From assembly GCA_038874595.1 (NCBI GenBank), contig JAVZCB010000002.1, forward strand, positions 135,850 through 199,849: a DNA stretch of 64,000 bases, read 5' to 3'. The position numbers and the translations under genes were made by a program. The DNA comes from Candidatus Micrarchaeia archaeon. GTDB taxonomy: Archaea > Micrarchaeota > Micrarchaeia > CAILAH01. The notes beneath the pieces are model-generated. The model was not told the DNA's origin. It saw only the letters and a list, made by a program, of their open reading frames with translations, and did no database searches. The stretch's first letter is position 1. Each line of letters opens with the position of its first letter. Of the stretch, positions 5,657-48,885 are shown in pieces.

Positions 5657-7396
5657 ATGAAAAGAATCTTGTTGCTGGTACTAGTTATTTGTGCGGTTGT
5701 AACAGCAAAGGATTATTCTATTGTTTCTGCAGACGAGAAAATAACTATAAAAGATAACGGCATAGTGCATATCACCGAAACAATAAACTATGATTTGTAC
5801 GATTGTAATGATAACAAATTCAAAGAGCTATACCTAACAAAACCAAGGGATTTGGAAATCAGAAATGCGCGAGGGTATTGTATTGGTGCTTTGTGCAATT
5901 TCAGGGTTGATGAGCCAGAAGTTTCTGTAAGCGGTGACAGGGAACTGATAAATGAGCTTGTTGGGGGCGGGTGCGGGAAGGTTACTGCTGTGTTTGAATA
6001 TGATGTAAAAGCAATTACAATTTACCCGGATACTTCACAGTTTTACTATAAGGTTTGGGGGGATAAGTGGGAGAAGCCTGCAAAGCTGAGTGTGAGTATT
6101 TACCTGCCCGGGAAAGCAAAGGAGACTGTATATTTTGTGCATTACGATTATTTTACATTTACACCTCCAACTAACTCCAGCAGTGGGAATATCATAAGCA
6201 TCAGTGCTGACCAACCGGCAAACCGGCTGCTTGAAATAAACCTACTGATGCCAAAAGAGTGGTTCAATGAGAACGGAGACTACTACTACAACAACAATAC
6301 GAGAAAGAAAGACATAATAAGTATTGAAGAGCGAACAATGTCAGCACTAAGTATTAAGCGCTTTGTTGATATTTTACTCCTGATTTTGTTTGTTGTATTT
6401 ATAACAATACCTTTTGCTGCTATAATCATATCATACCTGATTTTTGGAAAAGAACTTTCTGGTGAAGATGTTGGGTACAATGGATTGTACGAGTATGATC
6501 CACCTGAAAATAGGGGTGCGGCTGAAAGCATATTCTTTATAACAATGGATAAAGACTGCACTAAGAAGGATCTTGGAAATGCCCTCTCCTCAACAATGAT
6601 GGCCCTTGTAAACAAAGGTGCATTTGATATACAGGAGAGGGAAGTTAGCGGGCTCTTTGGGAAGACGAAAGAGATTGTATTTATTGTTAGAGAGCCAAAA
6701 GAAGAGTTGCTCGATTATGAAAAAATGCTGTTTGATTTTATGAAAGAGAAGGCAGTCAACGGAGAAATTAGTATGGATTCTTTTGCAAAAACAGTCGGCA
6801 AAACAAAAGAGTTTTATTTTTTCTCCCTAAAGTGGTGGAAAACAGTAATAAATCATATAGATGAAAACAAATTCGCAGATTACAAAGGATACTATATCCT
6901 TATGGCTATCATATTAATACACTTCTTTTTGTACTTTTTTGCCATAGTGCTTTTCTCATCAATAAATACTGTTATTCCCATAAATCTTTTTGCACTTATA
7001 GACTTTTTTTTGCTCATAATAGTTACTCCAAGAAAAAAAATTTGGGGAAGATGGACAAAGGAAGGAAGGATACTCAACCTCAAATGGGAAAATTTCAAGA
7101 AGTACTTATCAGATTTCAGCGCGCTTGAAGAACACCCTCCTTCAAGTGTAAAAATCTGGGACCATTATATGACGTATGCAATTGCGCTTGGAGTTGCGGA
7201 GAAAACAATAGAAGCAATGAAAAAAATAAGTCCCTTGGTGGTGCAACATTCAAGGGGCAACTATGTGTATGCAAACTATGGATTGTATACTTCTTTCAGT
7301 ACAAGTATGACCCCAAGCTACAAATCATCATCACGTGGAGGTAGAAGTGGCGGGTTTGGTGGCGGTAGGGGCGGTGGCGGCGGCGGTGCAAGATAA
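5657..7396 (+). CDS. DUF2207-like membrane protein with C-terminal Gly-rich tail
   Basis: Signal peptide, extracellular domain, internal TM helices and a terminal SRGGRSGGFGGGRGGGGGGAR tail. A TATA-like tttataaaaatt lies about 35 bp upstream. Confidence 0.5.
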   Translation: MKRILLLVLVICAVVTAKDYSIVSADEKITIKDNGIVHITETINYDLYDCNDNKFKELYLTKPRDLEIRNARGYCIGALCNFRVDEPEVSVSGDRELINELVGGGCGKVTAVFEYDVKAITIYPDTSQFYYKVWGDKWEKPAKLSVSIYLPGKAKETVYFVHYDYFTFTPPTNSSSGNIISISADQPANRLLEINLLMPKEWFNENGDYYYNNNTRKKDIISIEERTMSALSIKRFVDILLLILFVVFITIPFAAIIISYLIFGKELSGEDVGYNGLYEYDPPENRGAAESIFFITMDKDCTKKDLGNALSSTMMALVNKGAFDIQEREVSGLFGKTKEIVFIVREPKEELLDYEKMLFDFMKEKAVNGEISMDSFAKTVGKTKEFYFFSLKWWKTVINHIDENKFADYKGYYILMAIILIHFFLYFFAIVLFSSINTVIPINLFALIDFFLLIIVTPRKKIWGRWTKEGRILNLKWENFKKYLSDFSALEEHPPSSVKIWDHYMTYAIALGVAEKTIEAMKKISPLVVQHSRGNYVYANYGLYTSFSTSMTPSYKSSSRGGRSGGFGGGRGGGGGGAR

Positions 7397-7499: not shown

Positions 7500-9152
7500 T
7501 TATTGACATTGTAATGGTGGTTCTTTACTTCTTTCGGTGCTGTTTTGTGTATCTCTCTTTTTTATTGCCGCATCAATAAGAAACAGGAAAAGTGGTGCCG
7601 GCTTCTCAAGGCGGCTCTTAAACTCTGGGTGTGCCTGTGTACCAATACCAAGGCCGTTTGGCCATTCAACCATCTCAACAATGCCTGAATCCTTATGCCT
7701 GCCAGAGATAACAAGGCCGTGCTCTTCAAGGTCGGGCACAAACTCCGGGTTAACTTCATAACGGTGCCGGTGCCTCTCATCAACAAACTCAGAACCATAA
7801 TATGAATATGCCGTTGTGCCTGGGAAAACGTGCATTGTGTAGGAGCCAAGGCGCATTGTGCCTCCCTTCCTATCAATAAATTTCTGGTCTGGAAGCAGGT
7901 CTATAACAGGGTGTTTTGTTTCTGTGCTGAACTCTGTTGTGTGCGCATCATCCCATCCTAATACATTACGCGCATACTCAACGACCATCAGCTGCATACC
8001 AAGGCAAAGGCCAAGATAAGGGATATTGTTTGTACGTGCACAGTTGATTGCTGCAATCTTGCCTTCAATACCGCGTTTTCCAAAACCGCCAGGTACGATT
8101 ATGCCATTATACTTTGCCAGAAGTTGTGGCCCGCTCTCCTCAATTAAAGTAGATTCAACAAAATCTATAACCGGCTTTACATTGTAATGGGCGGCTGCGT
8201 GGATTATGGATTCGTAAACGGATGCATAAGCATCGCGTGTGGAAGTATATTTGCCTACAAGAGCTATGTGTACCTCTCCATTAGATGGTGATATAATGCG
8301 ATTAACAAGAGAGCTCCATGATGAGAGGTCTGGCGGGGTCTCATCCACATCTAATTTTGAGGATATTGCACGCATTATGCCCTGCTTGTTCAAAATGATA
8401 GGAAGCTCATAAATCGTACTTACAGTTGGATCATCATATACAAACTCTGGCTTGATGTTTGCAAATAAGGCAATTTTTTCTATGGCTTCCGCGCTGAGCG
8501 GCTCGTCCTCCCTGCACACAATAGCATCCGGGCGTAGGCCCAGGCTTTGTATGAGGCGGTTGGCGTGCTGTGTTGGCTTTGTCTTTGGCTCTCCCTTGGT
8601 AAGGCTCGGTACGCGCGTAAGTTGTATTGTCATAAAGTATTTTTCTTCATAGGATAACTGGCGGATTGCTTCAATGAAATATGAGTTCTCAAGGTCACCA
8701 ACCGTACCACCAACCTCTATAACAACAAAGTCGGCGTTTGTCTCGTCACCTAAACGGCGTATCCAGTCTTTAAGCTCATCTGTCAGATGAGGAATTATCT
8801 GGACATCGCGACCAAGGAAACGGCCCTCGCGCTCTTTTTGTATTAGGTGTTGGAATATCTTGCCGCCAGTTATGCTGGAAAATTTGGTCATAGGTATACC
8901 TAAAAACCTCTCGTAAGTGCCAAAGTCCATATCCACTTCAGAGCCGTCATCGAGCACAAACACCTCGCCGTGCCTGAAAGGGTTCATCGTCCCGCAGTCA
9001 ACGTTTAGGTAACCGTCAAACTTGAGCGGGACAACCTTGTAGCCTTTGAGTTGCAGAAGCTTGCAAATCGATGCGGTCAGTATTCCTTTCCCAAGGCCGG
9101 ACATGATGGAGCCGAGAATTGCGATATATCTCCTTTTGTTTGGCGCTTGCAT
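7500..9152 (-). CDS. pyrG: CTP synthase
   Basis: N-terminal synthetase motifs (ILGSIMSGLGKGI, KFDGYLNVDCGTMNP) and C-terminal class-I GATase (GLCLGMQ). 550 aa. Confidence 0.95.
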   Translation of the reverse strand: MQAPNKRRYIAILGSIMSGLGKGILTASICKLLQLKGYKVVPLKFDGYLNVDCGTMNPFRHGEVFVLDDGSEVDMDFGTYERFLGIPMTKFSSITGGKIFQHLIQKEREGRFLGRDVQIIPHLTDELKDWIRRLGDETNADFVVIEVGGTVGDLENSYFIEAIRQLSYEEKYFMTIQLTRVPSLTKGEPKTKPTQHANRLIQSLGLRPDAIVCREDEPLSAEAIEKIALFANIKPEFVYDDPTVSTIYELPIILNKQGIMRAISSKLDVDETPPDLSSWSSLVNRIISPSNGEVHIALVGKYTSTRDAYASVYESIIHAAAHYNVKPVIDFVESTLIEESGPQLLAKYNGIIVPGGFGKRGIEGKIAAINCARTNNIPYLGLCLGMQLMVVEYARNVLGWDDAHTTEFSTETKHPVIDLLPDQKFIDRKGGTMRLGSYTMHVFPGTTAYSYYGSEFVDERHRHRYEVNPEFVPDLEEHGLVISGRHKDSGIVEMVEWPNGLGIGTQAHPEFKSRLEKPAPLFLFLIDAAIKKRDTQNSTERSKEPPLQCQ

Positions 9153-23674: not shown

Positions 23675-23740
23675 GGTATCAACTCCACAATGTGTAATAT
23701 AGTATACAATTATTTTTATAATTTCACAAATAACATAAAT

Positions 23741-26041
23741 GGCATGTGTGACATGTCTATAAAAGGAAATACGCTCGTTTTTGACTGCATTAATTCGCCA
23801 TATGAATTTATGAGCCCGGAATTTATAGCAAACAACATTCGTGCAATGACGACGCTTGTCCGCACAGATTTTGAGAAGATAAGGTATGAGGAGCAGCTGG
23901 TGTTTGAGTTATCGGGTGAAAAAGCAGAGATAATTCTTTCATACATCCGCTTTCTCAAACAGGTGGAAAAGCTCCTTATGAACAAGCAGATATATGGAAG
24001 AGAGGATGATGATTCATATGTGCTTAGGAAAACAACACTTTCAAAAGTTTATGAAGAGCTTATGATGAACCCGCTTTTTGCAGAGCGTACGATAAACGAG
24101 TATAACGAGCCGCAACCTACAAAATCTGCATTTTATGAGGCTTACAAGGCATACAAGGCATGGCTTAAAGGGATACAGCAGAAGCTCCAATCAACAAAAA
24201 TGTACCAGCTTGTAAAGGAAAAGGGAGACATGCGGCAGGCATTTATTTACCTTCTCAACATGAGGGTAATGAAGCTTGTAGATTCCCTCGAACTGCTTCT
24301 TCCGGAGGGTTCCAAACCGCTTGATAAACCAGGGGCAGCTTATGAGCTTGATTATGGATATAAAATTACAATATATGATGTTCCAGGTTCTGAATCCTAC
24401 TGGTATATTATAGATAATCCAATAATTAATTCGCTTCCAGAGGAGGTTATTGTTGAAGCAAGAAAGCTTATTGAAAGAGATATGGGGGCCGTCCGCGGTA
24501 TCCAGGTAAAAGATTACAATCTTTTGTTGGATGAAAAGACGCGCGAGTATCGCAAGTATTTCTTTGAGTGGGCAGATGAGCATAAAGTTCAATTAACGCC
24601 CGAACAGAGCCTCGTCCTAGCACGCGCATGTGCATCGTGGGTTGCAGGCCTAGGCGAACCCATAGAGGCAATATGTCTCGATAAGCGCAACATAACAGAC
24701 ATTTACATTGATTCTGAGAATGCCCCAATATATATTGACCATGCCAATTTTGGGATATGTCATACAGTATATAGGTATAATTCAAAGCTAGTAGACCAGC
24801 TGTTCTTTAACATTTTGGCAACAGACAAGTCAGCAGTTTACGGCCCGCAAAACCCCATAGTTGATGTTGTTATGAAGCGCCTAAATATGCGATGCCACTT
24901 ACAGGGCCCACCAGCAACGTTCGGGGAAAGGCAGGGTGCGCTACGTTTGATGAAACAGACCCCATTCACATACGCGGAATATTTACGCTATCACGCCTTT
25001 TCGGCCTTTTTTGCAGGTTACGATGATACGATGGTTTTTCTTGGAACTTCAGAGGCCGTGCTTGGCTTGAAAGGTGTAGGTAAAACTTCATTTACAGCGG
25101 CAAAGATGATTGCGATTGGAACAAAAACAAGGATAATCCCCATACAAGACATAGAGGAGATACCAGTTGCTGCCTATAGGAAACGCGGGTTTCATATAGG
25201 TGTGATGCGCTCAATGGCTTCAGATAAAGAGGTTGAGCAGGCGACAGCCGGCTCAGCACTCTCACTCGTTGCGCTTACAAGCGCAACACTTCGTATGGGC
25301 GATGCTGCACTCATAATAAACGAGGTCCGCTCACGCGCAGCAATACAAGGTATAATAAATCTTCTGAACACCCAGCCGGGCGTATTTGTCCTTTACAATT
25401 TGCATGCTGAGAGCCTTAAAGATATCCGGGATAGGTTAGAGCTCGTATTCGGTATTCCGGGAGCAAGCATGTTTGCAACTGACAGGTATACTTTCCTGAA
25501 GAAGGTGCGTTTTGGGAGAAAGAGTGCAACATACCGCCTCCTCGGCGCCGCATATGAGAGTAATATAGAAGAGAAGCGGTTTGAGGAGGTTTTTGTATTT
25601 GAAAGGGGGAAAGATATAGAATCATCACAATGCAAAGCGCTGTTTGTTGAAAATCCAGAGCTTAACAAGTGGCTCATTGATGATATAAATCTTGGTGATT
25701 TGCAGAAAAACCTCTCGCTAAAATTTATACCCCCTGCTTTGCAACGGCGCGCAGATGACCGCGGCATTGCACCTGAACAGATGATAATGCAGGCAGCGTT
25801 TAAGGGTAAGGTGTATTCACAAATATATAGGGCGTATGAAAAGTATGGGTATTACGAACTGCTTGAAATGGATTTTGTGCTTAAGGCATCCTCTCTAGCA
25901 AATAAGCTGCTCAAATCGCTTGAAGACGAGGAAGGAAATGTTAATTATGAGGTTGTTGATAGAGAATGGGAGGCAGAATTCCAGCAATTGCTATCTGAAG
26001 AGCTGGAATTTCTTCGCCTTAAGAAAGAGCAGGCGCGGTAA
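23741..26041 (+). CDS. divergent secretion-superfamily ATPase (FlaI/VirB11/TadA class) with long N-terminal extension
   Basis: Ordered motifs: Walker A GLKGVGKTS; Asp box TRIIPIQDIEEI; Walker B DAALIINEVRS (catalytic Glu kept); His box VLYNLHAES. Start set at Met18 so the TATA atttttataattt sits about 25 bp upstream. Confidence 0.5.
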   Translation, partial: GMCDMSIKGNTLVFDCINSPYEFMSPEFIANNIRAMTTLVRTDFEKIRYEEQLVFELSGEKAEIILSYIRFLKQVEKLLMNKQIYGREDDDSYVLRKTTLSKVYEELMMNPLFAERTINEYNEPQPTKSAFYEAYKAYKAWLKGIQQKLQSTKMYQLVKEKGDMRQAFIYLLNMRVMKLVDSLELLLPEGSKPLDKPGAAYELDYGYKITIYDVPGSESYWYIIDNPIINSLPEEVIVEARKLIERDMGAVRGIQVKDYNLLLDEKTREYRKYFFEWADEHKVQLTPEQSLVLARACASWVAGLGEPIEAICLDKRNITDIYIDSENAPIYIDHANFGICHTVYRYNSKLVDQLFFNILATDKSAVYGPQNPIVDVVMKRLNMRCHLQGPPATFGERQGALRLMKQTPFTYAEYLRYHAFSAFFAGYDDTMVFLGTSEAVLGLKGVGKTSFTAAKMIAIGTKTRIIPIQDIEEIPVAAYRKRGFHIGVMRSMASDKEVEQATAGSALSLVALTSATLRMGDAALIINEVRSRAAIQGIINLLNTQPGVFVLYNLHAESLKDIRDRLELVFGIPGASMFATDRYTFLKKVRFGRKSATYRLLGAAYESNIEEKRFEEVFVFERGKDIESSQCKALFVENPELNKWLIDDINLGDLQKNLSLKFIPPALQRRADDRGIAPEQMIMQAAFKGKVYSQIYRAYEKYGYYELLEMDFVLKASSLANKLLKSLEDEEGNVNYEVVDREWEAEFQQLLSEELEFLRLKKEQAR

Positions 26042-26809: not shown

Positions 26810-26867
26810 CACTCTTCTCTTTTTATGAAATGTTTTAAACATTAATAACCCAAAATTTCCAGATGGG

Positions 26868-27231
26868 GCCATGGTGCAACCTGGCAACACGGCTGGCTCC
26901 AGACGAAGGGCAGACACCTACGGTTTCCGCCCTTCGCAACCCTACTTTCCCCTACGGGAAAAGGGACTGGTTTAATGAGAACTTTTTGGATGGCTAAAGG
27001 CCTCACCAAAAGAAGTTCGATGATTGCATAAACTGGAGCTTGTCAACACGCCCATTTGCATATGCAAATGGCGCATCATCCGCTTTGGCGGATGCTTGTG
27101 ACATGACCTGTCGTGTTGTATTGAGAAACCAGCAAATCGGGGTTCAAAAGAGGAGAGGAAGGGGGCTTTGCCCCCTCTCTCCCTCTACTCTCATACCTCT
27201 GAGGGGCGTGAAATGGAAATCCTCGTGGCCC
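26868..27231 (+). ncRNA. candidate structured RNA, about 360 nt, with paired 5' and 3' ends (SRP-RNA or RNase-P-RNA size class); identity unresolved
   Basis: GC-rich island without a credible ORF. 5' GGGGCCAUGG pairs with 3' CGUGGCCCC. Internal hairpins: 20-bp perfect palindrome CCATTTGCATATGCAAATGG (27052-27071), CATCCGC-TTTG-GCGGATG, and a 16-bp stem GAGGAGAGGAAGGGGGC-TTT-GCCCCCTCTCTCCCTC. A TATA-like element lies about 27 bp upstream of 26868. Confidence 0.4.
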
Positions 27232-27285
27232 CATCCTTATTAAAGCTTAAAATACTTACGACAGACATTTAAAAGGGGTGTATAT

Positions 27286-36650: not shown

Positions 36651-36682
36651 TATTATAAAATGAAATGAAAGCAAGGATTTAT

Positions 36683-36800
36683 TCTTCTTCCTCCTCTTCT
36701 TCCTCCTCTTCTTCGTCTTCCCAGTCTTCTTCCTCTTCATCCCATTCCTCATCTTCTTCCTCTTCATCGATATCTTCATCTTCCTCATCAAAGTCGTCGT
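36683..36800. repeat. about 120-bp polypyrimidine (TCT/TCC/TCA)n tract
   Basis: Reads as poly-Ser on the plus strand and poly-Glu/Asp on the minus strand. Lies between the convergent 3' end of the large surface-protein gene and the PAP2 gene promoter. Confidence 0.7.
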
Positions 36801-39637: not shown

Positions 39638-39793
39638 TGCGGCTGCCGGGATTTTCACATGCACCCAGCACGTTATTGTATGGAGTGCCCTGCTTTGAAC
39701 CCGGGTCTTAGCCTTTTTGAGAAGCACCGCATTTTTGGCGCTCAAAAAAGCGGCATGGCAAGGCCATGTCCTACCAGGCTAGACTACAGCCGC
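39638..39793 (-). tRNA. tRNA-Gly(GCC) with two predicted introns (after position 37 and inside the T-loop after position 58)
   Basis: Minus-strand read: acceptor GCGGCUG/CAGCCGC (7 bp) with discriminator A. D-arm GUCU-AGCCUGGUA-GGAC. Anticodon stem UGGCC/GGCUA with loop UUGCCA[41-nt intron]A. T-stem CCGGG/CCCGG with T-loop UUCAA[42-nt intron]AU. Exons sum to 73 nt. Confidence 0.55.
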
Positions 39794-39870
39794 CTGTTAT
39801 TGTATCATTCAAATTGGAAAACTATTTATTAGTTTCCAGGCCAATTTTTTTTATGCGAAGGGGCGGGCAA

Positions 39871-40377
39871 ATGGAGAATAATACAAGTGTACTGATGAAT
39901 AAGCTGGTACAGGAGGGCGCATCGAAGAAGCTGGCCAGTTTTATATGTCGCCTTAACGAGGACCTTTCACTAATAAACCCATCCAAAAAGATAGATTTGG
40001 TTGATCACAAATTATTCATTTTTGAGGAAAATTCCCCGCTTGCAGTTATAGGTTTTTTAGGAAAGATAAATAATACCATCTCTTTTATTTATGACTCGCG
40101 CCATTTTGATGAATATGGCAGCACGGCACGCACAGTATTTTCACAGCTCTTTGCAGAGGATTACGAGAGGCTTCTGCAAAGCGGGGATGACCGGGAAATC
40201 CCAGCCTCATTAATTCACGAGTTTCACTATTTTGTAGCTAAACTTAACAGGTTTGGCAATGTGCTTGAAGTTGAGTTATACTCAAAGGATAGTGAGCTTT
40301 TGGCAATGCTAAGCGATATCCCAAAAGAAGCAGTTCTAGCAGACCGCAATAACACGGCAGATTCAGGTTTGAATTAG
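39871..40377 (+). CDS. hypothetical protein
   Basis: ORF. Start moved downstream of the tRNA to MENNTSVL. No recognised domain. Confidence 0.35.
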   Translation: MENNTSVLMNKLVQEGASKKLASFICRLNEDLSLINPSKKIDLVDHKLFIFEENSPLAVIGFLGKINNTISFIYDSRHFDEYGSTARTVFSQLFAEDYERLLQSGDDREIPASLIHEFHYFVAKLNRFGNVLEVELYSKDSELLAMLSDIPKEAVLADRNNTADSGLN

Positions 40378-48731: not shown

Positions 48732-48885
48732 TGGACCCGCCCAGATTTTCAAGAAGGAACAACCGCAACTCGCGCGTGTTCGCGAAGCGAACTACCTGGG
48801 AGCGCGAGGGGCGGATGCGCCATCGCATTGAACTGGGGATCTTTCCCGTGTCAGGGGAACGTCTTAACCACTCGACTACGGGTCC
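48732..48885 (-). tRNA. tRNA-Val(GAC) with a predicted 81-nt intron inside the T-loop
   Basis: Minus-strand read: acceptor GGACCCG/CGGGUCC with discriminator A. D-arm GUCG-AGUGGUUA-AGAC. Anticodon stem UUCCC/GGGAA with loop CUGACAC. Variable loop AGAUC. T-stem CCCAG/CUGGG with T-loop UUCAA[intron]AU. The intron 3' end CUUGAAA can pair with exon UUCAAG. Exons sum to 73 nt. Confidence 0.6.

Follow-up and report, generated by a model that had tools for sequence, protein, structure and literature searches.

A stretch of 64,000 nucleotides (nt) from the DPANN organism Candidatus Micrarchaeia archaeon (GenBank assembly GCA_038874595.1, contig JAVZCB010000002.1, positions 135,850 to 199,849), which we call the window at its full length, contains on its minus strand, from position 39793 to position 39638, what is very probably a functional gene for tRNA-Gly(GCC) interrupted by two bulge-helix-bulge introns. 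The gene is probably present as a single copy in the genome. Its precursor comprises 156 nt, with an intron of 41 nt at site 37/38 of the anticodon loop and another of 42 nt at site 59/60 of the T-loop. An initial annotation, which had the letters of the window to go by, had proposed a tRNA-Gly(GCC) with insertions of about 41 and 42 nt in these two loops. The identity of the tRNA and the two introns held up, the lengths proved to be exactly 41 and 42 nt, and the strand is now added to the description.

The gene and its spliced product

Read along the minus strand, the gene is built as GCGGCUG UA GUCU AGCCUGGUA GGAC A UGGCC UUGCCA (41 nt) A GGCUA AGAC CCGGG UUCAAA (42 nt) U CCCGG CAGCCGC A, where the lengths in brackets stand for the introns. 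CCA is not encoded at its 3' end. The tRNA model of Rfam (RF00005, gathering score 29) covers exactly positions 39638-39793 of the minus strand at 40.7 bits (E 3.7e-5 for the 64-kb window), with the gene in its unspliced form. A covariance search had been recommended by the initial annotation as a check, and the resulting alignment extends over the full length of the gene (model positions 1-71); the anticodon loop and the T-loop each hold an insertion of about 43 nt. ARAGORN, run over the whole window with its intron mode on or off, called no tRNA; when both introns are removed in silico, the same program calls a 73-nt tRNA-Gly(gcc).

The spliced molecule adopts a canonical cloverleaf, in which the anticodon loop (UUGCCAA) and the T-loop (UUCAAAU) have 7 nt each. 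Its anticodon stem, UGGCC/GGCUA, on which the initial annotation had staked its choice of boundaries, makes five pairs, one of which is G.U, and the loop that it closes holds U33 and the anticodon GCC. Once the 37/38 intron is removed, this loop is identical across all tRNA-Gly orthologues. The body of the molecule is likewise of the glycine type. In Archaea, the glycine identity elements are G1-C72, C2-G71, G3-C70 and A73; all of them are present, together with a short variable loop of 4 nt, and they are invariant in the alignment of orthologues.

Splice motifs at the two junctions

The archaeal splicing endonuclease recognises a 3-4-3 motif, noted hBHBh', where a helix of 4 base pairs (bp) separates two bulges of 3 nt, each of them cut after its second nucleotide (PMC3239211). 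When the precursor was scanned for every possible bulge-helix-bulge arrangement, the intron at 59/60 gave the top score. It displays the strict variant of the motif: the 5-bp T stem forms the outer helix, the central helix UUCA/UGAA has four pairs out of four, the bulges are AA↓G and AA↓U (arrows mark the cuts), and a 2-bp inner helix, CA/UG, follows. Among shuffled introns, 0.24% equal this motif in the same register. The 37/38 intron conforms to the relaxed variant alone. In its central helix, UUGC/UCAA, a C35.U mismatch leaves three pairs, and the bulges on either side are CA↓U and AA↓A. In an alternative arrangement G34 and C35 pair with a GC located beside the inner helix, so that the 5' cut falls in a well-formed CA↓U bulge. 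Self-splicing introns of group I or group II are ruled out by the size of the insertions (41 and 42 nt) and by the absence of any Rfam match, hence of a recognisable catalytic core, in or around them.

The initial annotation had split the T-loop between UUCAA and AU, at the same position as in the tRNA-Val gene of the window. The site is indeed common to both genes, but the geometry of the bulge-helix-bulge places the junction at 59/60 (UUCAAA↓U), not at 58/59. An intron at 58/59, or at 56/57, is unlikely. It is true that AAA stands at both junctions (UUC-AAA-G...UGA-AAA-U), so that the cut is not fixed by sequence and all registers produce the same mature tRNA; the registers 58/59 and 59/60, in particular, are indistinguishable in the mature tRNA-Gly because A residues flank both junctions. 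Furthermore, one relative (L016 in Table 1) has its T-loop intron at 56/57, where it uses another helix, GGGU/GCCC. Against these alternatives, the 3-4-3 rule, with cuts after the second nucleotide of each 3-nt bulge and 4 bp apart (PMC3239211), gives 59/60 when the T stem is the outer helix, and the same register also fits the tRNA-Val and tRNA-Trp genes of the window as well as the L018 and L020 orthologues. We therefore keep 59/60 for what follows.

The initial annotation had also argued that an unusual insertion site shared by two tRNAs speaks for a real splicing feature. A strict splice motif was found at the site in tRNA-Gly, in agreement with the argument; the site itself, however, is not unusual in this lineage (PMC3239211).

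Conservation and covariation among relatives

Orthologues were collected by three routes: a scan of genomes, a scan of metagenomes with a pattern made from the 5' half of the gene, and inspection of the contigs that carry the closest homologues of the adjacent topoisomerase. Most tRNA-Gly(GCC) orthologues lie downstream of the topoisomerase gene, in relatives where this protein is 60-77% identical to its counterpart in the window (Table 1). This comparison with related genomes, another of the checks that had been advised, revealed conserved exons, compensatory changes in the stems and variable introns.

Table 1. Introns of tRNA-Gly(GCC) in the window and at orthologous loci
Locus	Topoisomerase identity	Intron at 37/38	T-loop intron
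Window	100%	41 nt	59/60, 42 nt
L018	77%	162 nt	59/60, 66 nt
L019	77%	35 nt	59/60, 145 nt
L017	77%	35 nt	after UUCAAA, apparently 59/60, >150 nt; locus ends before the 3' exon
L020 / L021	72%	41 nt	59/60, 59 nt
L022	68%	54 nt	none
L023 / L024	65%	205 / 126 nt	none
L004	60%	79 nt	none
L015		86 nt	none
L016		138 nt	56/57, 39 nt

In the eight distinct spliced orthologues the mean column identity is 94%, and all 21 stem pairs form in every sequence (100% of paired cells). Compensatory double changes affect six of these pairs, and four of the six belong to the acceptor stem, the strands of which flank both introns. Not one of 500 shuffles reached the observed level of pairing and covariation, and pairing is lost when the partners are slid along each other. 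Conservation and covariation of the exons, combined with variable introns, thus argue for a functional tRNA from which the introns are removed.

The introns tell a different story. The one at 37/38 is present at all ten loci (the window and nine orthologues), where it spans 35-205 nt, with sequences that are largely unrelated. Its 4-bp helix is intact in every orthologue, with GCAA, GCAG, GCGA, GUAA or GUGA opposite UUGC, and the UCAA of the window is the sole imperfect case. The T-loop introns range across loci from 39 to 145 nt and display little similarity by BLAST, while their 3' ends are kept as N-G-R-A followed by AA; those inserted at 59/60 all end in (U/G)GAA-AA before U60. An intron at 59/60 is found in the closer relatives (L018, L019 and L017 at 77% topoisomerase identity, L020/L021 at 72%) and is absent at 68% or below (L022, L023/L024 and L004). 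It seems to be a gain of the sub-clade to which the window belongs, at a topoisomerase identity of at least 72%.

Individual loci show further features. The L016 gene, on the minus strand, has the same exons as the window. Its 138-nt anticodon intron holds a GUGAUGA string and two CUGA strings, possibly a C/D-box RNA. The exons of L023 and L024 are identical, and their 37/38 introns (7668-7872 and 7668-7793, respectively) differ in the number of copies of a 79-nt tandem repeat, three in the former and two in the latter. In L018, an extra 113 nt or so relative to the window (positions 6620-6734, approximately) separates the conserved TATA-like box (AATAAATAGTTTTC...) from the start of tRNA-Gly; this insert would be either a long leader or another removable element.

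Weighing the alternatives

Several observations weigh against a functional, spliced tRNA-Gly(GCC) gene. The D arm and the anticodon arm are not formed in the unconstrained minimum-energy fold of the precursor, and the energy model puts the penalty for imposing the cloverleaf at about 8 kcal/mol; constrained folds were used in place of the unconstrained one. The motif at 37/38, with three pairs out of four and its C35.U mismatch, is equalled by 7.7% of shuffles, whereas the orthologues all have four out of four, and its inner helix, UGCCGC:GCGGUG, stands four extra nucleotides away from the central helix. Finally, a Pfam scan of 40 open reading frames (ORFs) of the window detected no domain of the splicing endonuclease EndA. 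RtcB domains were absent from these ORFs as well.

Under a rival reading the gene would be a pseudogene, disrupted by two insertions that are never removed (small hairpin-forming mobile sequences, for example), while a functional copy resides elsewhere in the genome. The failure of standard tools on this gene, the imperfect splice motif of the anticodon intron and the fast turnover of intron sequences among relatives, even among strains, would fit with such decay. We nevertheless consider it highly improbable. The gene has intact exons, conserved with compensatory changes across orthologues that carry insertions at identical sites; these insertions are located precisely where a bulge-helix-bulge forms, and 7-nt loops are restored upon their removal. 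The same build is shared by the three tRNA genes found in the window (three out of three), and small DPANN genomes normally have one gene per tRNA. Other boundaries of the anticodon intron would create a tRNA of another identity, Leu(CAA), or Phe(GAA) or Cys(GCA) with a cut at 34/35 or 35/36, respectively. On paper, several 7-nt loops are possible because A residues follow one another at the 3' junction, and ARAGORN with option -i, given the gene with the T-loop intron alone removed, called a tRNA-Leu(caa) with a 39-nt intron. We rejected this call on the half-spliced form, which lacks a long variable arm and has the intron in the wrong register. More generally, a different identity is extremely improbable: the cut at 37/38 is the only one that puts both sites in bulges beside the anticodon stem; the arrangement UUGCCA, intron, A is common to all nine orthologues at one place, with a 4/4 helix in that register; the 4-nt variable loop is incompatible with a class II tRNA-Leu; and G1-C72, C2-G71, G3-C70 and A73 suit glycine under the rules generally held for Archaea. 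A last alternative would give the introns of tRNA-Gly a role besides being spliced out, as C/D-box guide RNA, regulatory RNA or homing-endonuclease gene. C/D-box guides do occur in some archaeal tRNA introns, and strings resembling C and D boxes exist in the long anticodon introns of the tRNA-Trp of the window and of the L016 tRNA-Gly. The introns of the window tRNA-Gly, for their part, have just 41 and 42 nt, with no ORF and no Rfam match, C/D-box families included; neither contains a C box (RUGAUGA) or a D box (CUGA), and their sequences are not conserved among orthologues, except for the ends that make the splice motif. A function beyond removal is thus very unlikely.

A probable route to the mature tRNA

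By analogy with established archaeal tRNA maturation, the tRNA-Gly(GCC) gene would be transcribed from a TATA-like A/T box, AATAAATAG (39830-39822), about 30-37 nt upstream of its first nucleotide. Similar A/T boxes (ATAAATAG, TTTATAG, AATAAAG) are found 30-40 nt upstream of tRNA-Gly orthologues. RNase P and RNase Z would trim the leader and the trailer, and EndA would cut after the second nucleotide of the bulges, CA↓U and AA↓A at 37/38, AA↓G and AA↓U at 59/60. An RtcB-type ligase would then join the three exons into the 73-nt tRNA, to which CCA would be added post-transcriptionally because it is not encoded. Given the relaxed motif in the anticodon loop and the non-canonical site in the T-loop, an endonuclease of broad specificity is expected, for example of the epsilon2 type, the structure of which has been described (PMC3488258).

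Two further tRNA genes with an intron at 59/60

Acceptor, D-arm and T-stem complementarity was scanned for in a way that tolerates long insertions. This recovered tRNA-Gly and tRNA-Val(GAC), the gene already invoked by the initial annotation for its shared T-loop site, and added tRNA-Trp(CCA), so that the three tRNA genes found in the window all carry an intron at 59/60. Rfam at a permissive threshold gave no further tRNA or intron-borne RNA over the whole window. A weak match to the C/D-box small RNA sR1 at 23842-23891 (plus strand), inside the ORF 23690-26041, is probably due to chance (20 bits for a gathering score of 45, E 0.82).

In tRNA-Val, the 81-nt insertion at the site shared with tRNA-Gly has a central helix UUCA/UGAA with bulges AU↓G and AA↓U. 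Rfam matches 57 nt of the gene (48829-48885) at 29.3 bits, right at threshold, and the match is partial because the intron splits the T-loop. Here the unconstrained minimum-energy fold displays the cloverleaf and a helix UUCA(A)/(U)UGAA beside an AAU bulge. The registers give different mature T-loops, UUCAAAU for 58/59 and UUCAAUU for 59/60. ARAGORN identifies the spliced 73-nt product as tRNA-Val(gac).

The tRNA-Trp gene escaped Rfam at 26865-27233, even in a search restricted to 500 nt, where chance hairpin matches were the only result; its spliced 73-nt product is tRNA-Trp(cca) for ARAGORN. The central helix at its 59/60 site is UUCA/UGGA, with bulges AA↓A and AA↓U. The 59/60 introns of both tRNA-Val and tRNA-Trp combine a perfect central helix with a 3' bulge and lack an immediately closed 5' bulge, which makes them of the hBH type. 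The 225-nt anticodon intron of tRNA-Trp holds CUGGAGC, the complement of the anticodon loop GCUCCAG, and a GAUGAUU string. Introns of euryarchaeal pre-tRNA-Trp encode a C/D-box guide RNA complementary to the tRNA, and it is conceivable, from these strings, that the intron of the window carries a similar guide.

Possible turnover of the T-loop introns

The 59/60 introns of this Micrarchaeia clade may constitute an actively moving family, a tentative proposal that we regard as possible, if short of probable. Two loci at 77% topoisomerase identity, L017 and L019, have 98% identical DNA over about 6.4 kb, and this identity ends exactly at the 59/60 junction of tRNA-Gly, beyond which the introns are unrelated (the stretches compared are 6470-6626 in L017 and 6602-6746 in L019). 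This suggests that introns could be replaced at a fixed 59/60 site on a strain-level time scale, with the proviso that the L017 sequence ends before the 3' exon. The contig of L025, which belongs to the L019 species (98.4% identity to L019), ends inside the 59/60 intron of tRNA-Gly.

Furthermore, the tRNA-Trp 59/60 intron of the window opens with 34 nt that form a GC-rich hairpin (AGAGGAGAGGAAGGGGGCUUUGCCCCCUCUCUCC, 27149-27182) and share 91% identity with the 33 nt at the start of the L017 tRNA-Gly intron at the same site (6470-6502). Such a match suggests that related introns may occupy different tRNAs at one and the same site, by exchange between tRNAs. When all introns were compared by BLAST to the window and to all loci, no extra copies were found, and this was the sole cross-match; there is therefore no sign of a dispersed repeat. 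Homology between the T-loop introns of tRNA-Gly and tRNA-Val was also considered, and rejected: they share nothing beyond their ...UGAAAA end, which the splice motif itself requires.

If the proposal is correct, these metagenomes hold snapshots of the transposition or replacement of tRNA introns at a fixed site, a type of evidence that has been called for in the field (PMC4033280). Such replacement, if rapid, might also shed light on the spread of bulge-helix-bulge introns. This would be a modest extension of known biology, and yet these side observations may merit more attention than the tRNA-Gly gene itself.

Genomic context

The neighbours of tRNA-Gly are an archaeal gene set: fibrillarin, a membrane protein similar to lysyl-phosphatidylglycerol synthase, a NAC protein and the topoisomerase. 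An identical topoisomerase protein next to an identical 156-nt tRNA gene is found in another NCBI contig, JAWAEQ010000002.1 (GCA_038891275.1), and in two Logan assemblies. As the initial annotation had anticipated, the start of the ORF proposed at 39766 has to be moved downstream: gene callers begin it at 39853, 60 nt from the 5' end of the tRNA, where a start at 39766 would overlap the tRNA by 28 nt. This overlap is an artefact, because the longest ORF was taken. The product of the corrected ORF has no Pfam match. Coordinates are collected in Table 2.

Table 2. Coordinates of the features in the window, with the basis of each assignment
Feature	Position	Strand	Basis
tRNA-Gly(GCC), exon 1 (acceptor 5' strand, D arm, anticodon stem 5' strand, loop nt 32-37 UUGCCA)	39756..39793	-	Rfam alignment, sequence, in-silico splicing
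tRNA-Gly(GCC), intron 1 (41 nt, canonical 37/38, relaxed bulge-helix-bulge)	39715..39755	-	motif scan, constrained fold, orthologues
tRNA-Gly(GCC), exon 2 (A38, anticodon stem 3' strand GGCUA, variable loop AGAC, T stem 5' strand CCGGG, T-loop nt 54-59 UUCAAA)	39694..39714	-	Rfam alignment, in-silico splicing
tRNA-Gly(GCC), intron 2 (42 nt, T-loop 59/60, strict hBHBh')	39652..39693	-	motif scan, shuffles, orthologues
tRNA-Gly(GCC), exon 3 (U60, T stem 3' strand CCCGG, acceptor 3' strand CAGCCGC, discriminator A73)	39638..39651	-	Rfam alignment, in-silico splicing
Probable archaeal TATA box of tRNA-Gly, 30-37 nt upstream of tRNA nt 1 (putative promoter)	39822..39830	-	sequence, upstream regions of orthologues
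Neighbouring ORF, corrected start (174 aa)	39853..40377	+	gene calls on NCBI and Logan contigs
tRNA-Val(GAC), 154 nt; one 81-nt intron (48826-48746) at 59/60	48732..48885	-	Rfam (partial), sequence, ARAGORN on the spliced form
tRNA-Trp(CCA), 369 nt; introns of 225 nt at 37/38 (26903-27127) and 71 nt at 59/60 (27149-27219)	26865..27233	+	stem-complementarity scan

Two other genes of the window deserve a comment. On the minus strand, the ORF at 21316-21885 matches the C-terminal part alone of the RNA 3'-terminal phosphate cyclase, an enzyme acting on RNA ends like those from tRNA splicing (RTC, profile positions 136-221, and its insert domain). Because the ORF as started at ATG has no N-terminal part, an alternative start, a frameshift or a split gene is suggested; an unassigned stretch extends beyond it to about 22400. 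On the plus strand, the longest ORF of a gene of the PAP2 family opens with a long poly-serine run encoded by an AGC-type repeat (36665-36800). Gene callers use a shorter product of 349-367 residues, which makes it likely that the repeat is either non-coding DNA upstream of the gene or low-complexity sequence.

Relation to known disrupted tRNA genes

Applied to the three tRNAs of the window, standard finders perform poorly: ARAGORN detects none of the three, and Rfam detects one fully (Gly), one partly (Val) and one not at all (Trp). As a consequence, genome bins of Micrarchaeia will seem to be short of tRNAs, and adjoining ORFs will be given wrong starts, as happened at 39766. The archaeal mode of tRNAscan-SE 2.0 has its search for non-canonical introns on by default.

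Doubly interrupted tRNA genes are already known from Micrarchaeota; the present one differs from them in the tRNA concerned and in the sites combined, belongs to an uncultured and distant relative, and adds a glycine example, at 37/38 and 59/60, to the disrupted tRNAs of the phylum. In Candidatus Micrarchaeum acidiphilum (ARMAN-2), 56% of the tRNA genes are disrupted (Fujishima et al., 2011; PMC3239211). Its pre-tRNA-Cys(GCA) has an hBH-type intron at 59/60 that its epsilon2 endonuclease cleaves in vitro, and its pre-tRNA-Pro(GGG) has two introns in the T-loop, at 53/54 and 59/60 (PMC3239211). The phylum, the 59/60 site, the types of motif (strict hBHBh' and relaxed hBH) and the presence of more than one intron in a tRNA are thus common to both organisms. 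By contrast, the tRNA is here tRNA-Gly, the sites are 37/38 and 59/60, and the introns have 41-42 nt when the ARMAN-2 Cys intron that was tested has 13 nt. The organism of the window is also a distant relative, known only from metagenome bins of the hot-spring type.

Non-canonical sites that include 56/57 and 59/60 have been listed in review (PMC4090602), and tRNAs with as many as three introns have been described (PMC3239211; PMC8450103). According to Sugahara 2007/2008 and Fujishima 2010, as cited in PMC4090602, PMC4033280 and PMC8450103, Thermoproteales such as Pyrobaculum, Thermofilum and Caldivirga have tRNAs with up to three bulge-helix-bulge introns, at sites that include 56/57 and 59/60. 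The same sources describe related introns in different tRNAs, transposition of introns and a dependence on an endonuclease of broad specificity (PMC4090602; PMC4033280; PMC8450103), all of which recalls the present case. These organisms, however, are Crenarchaeota with an (alpha-beta)2 endonuclease, not DPANN. In Caldiarchaeum subterraneum, close genomes differ in intron content at a single tRNA locus (Sugahara et al., 2012; PMC3293823), as L017 and L019 do here. The change is tied there to a 1.8-kb element that encodes a recombinase and to a tRNA fragment (PMC3293823), whereas no such element is visible at the loci compared here, of which L017 ends before the 3' exon.

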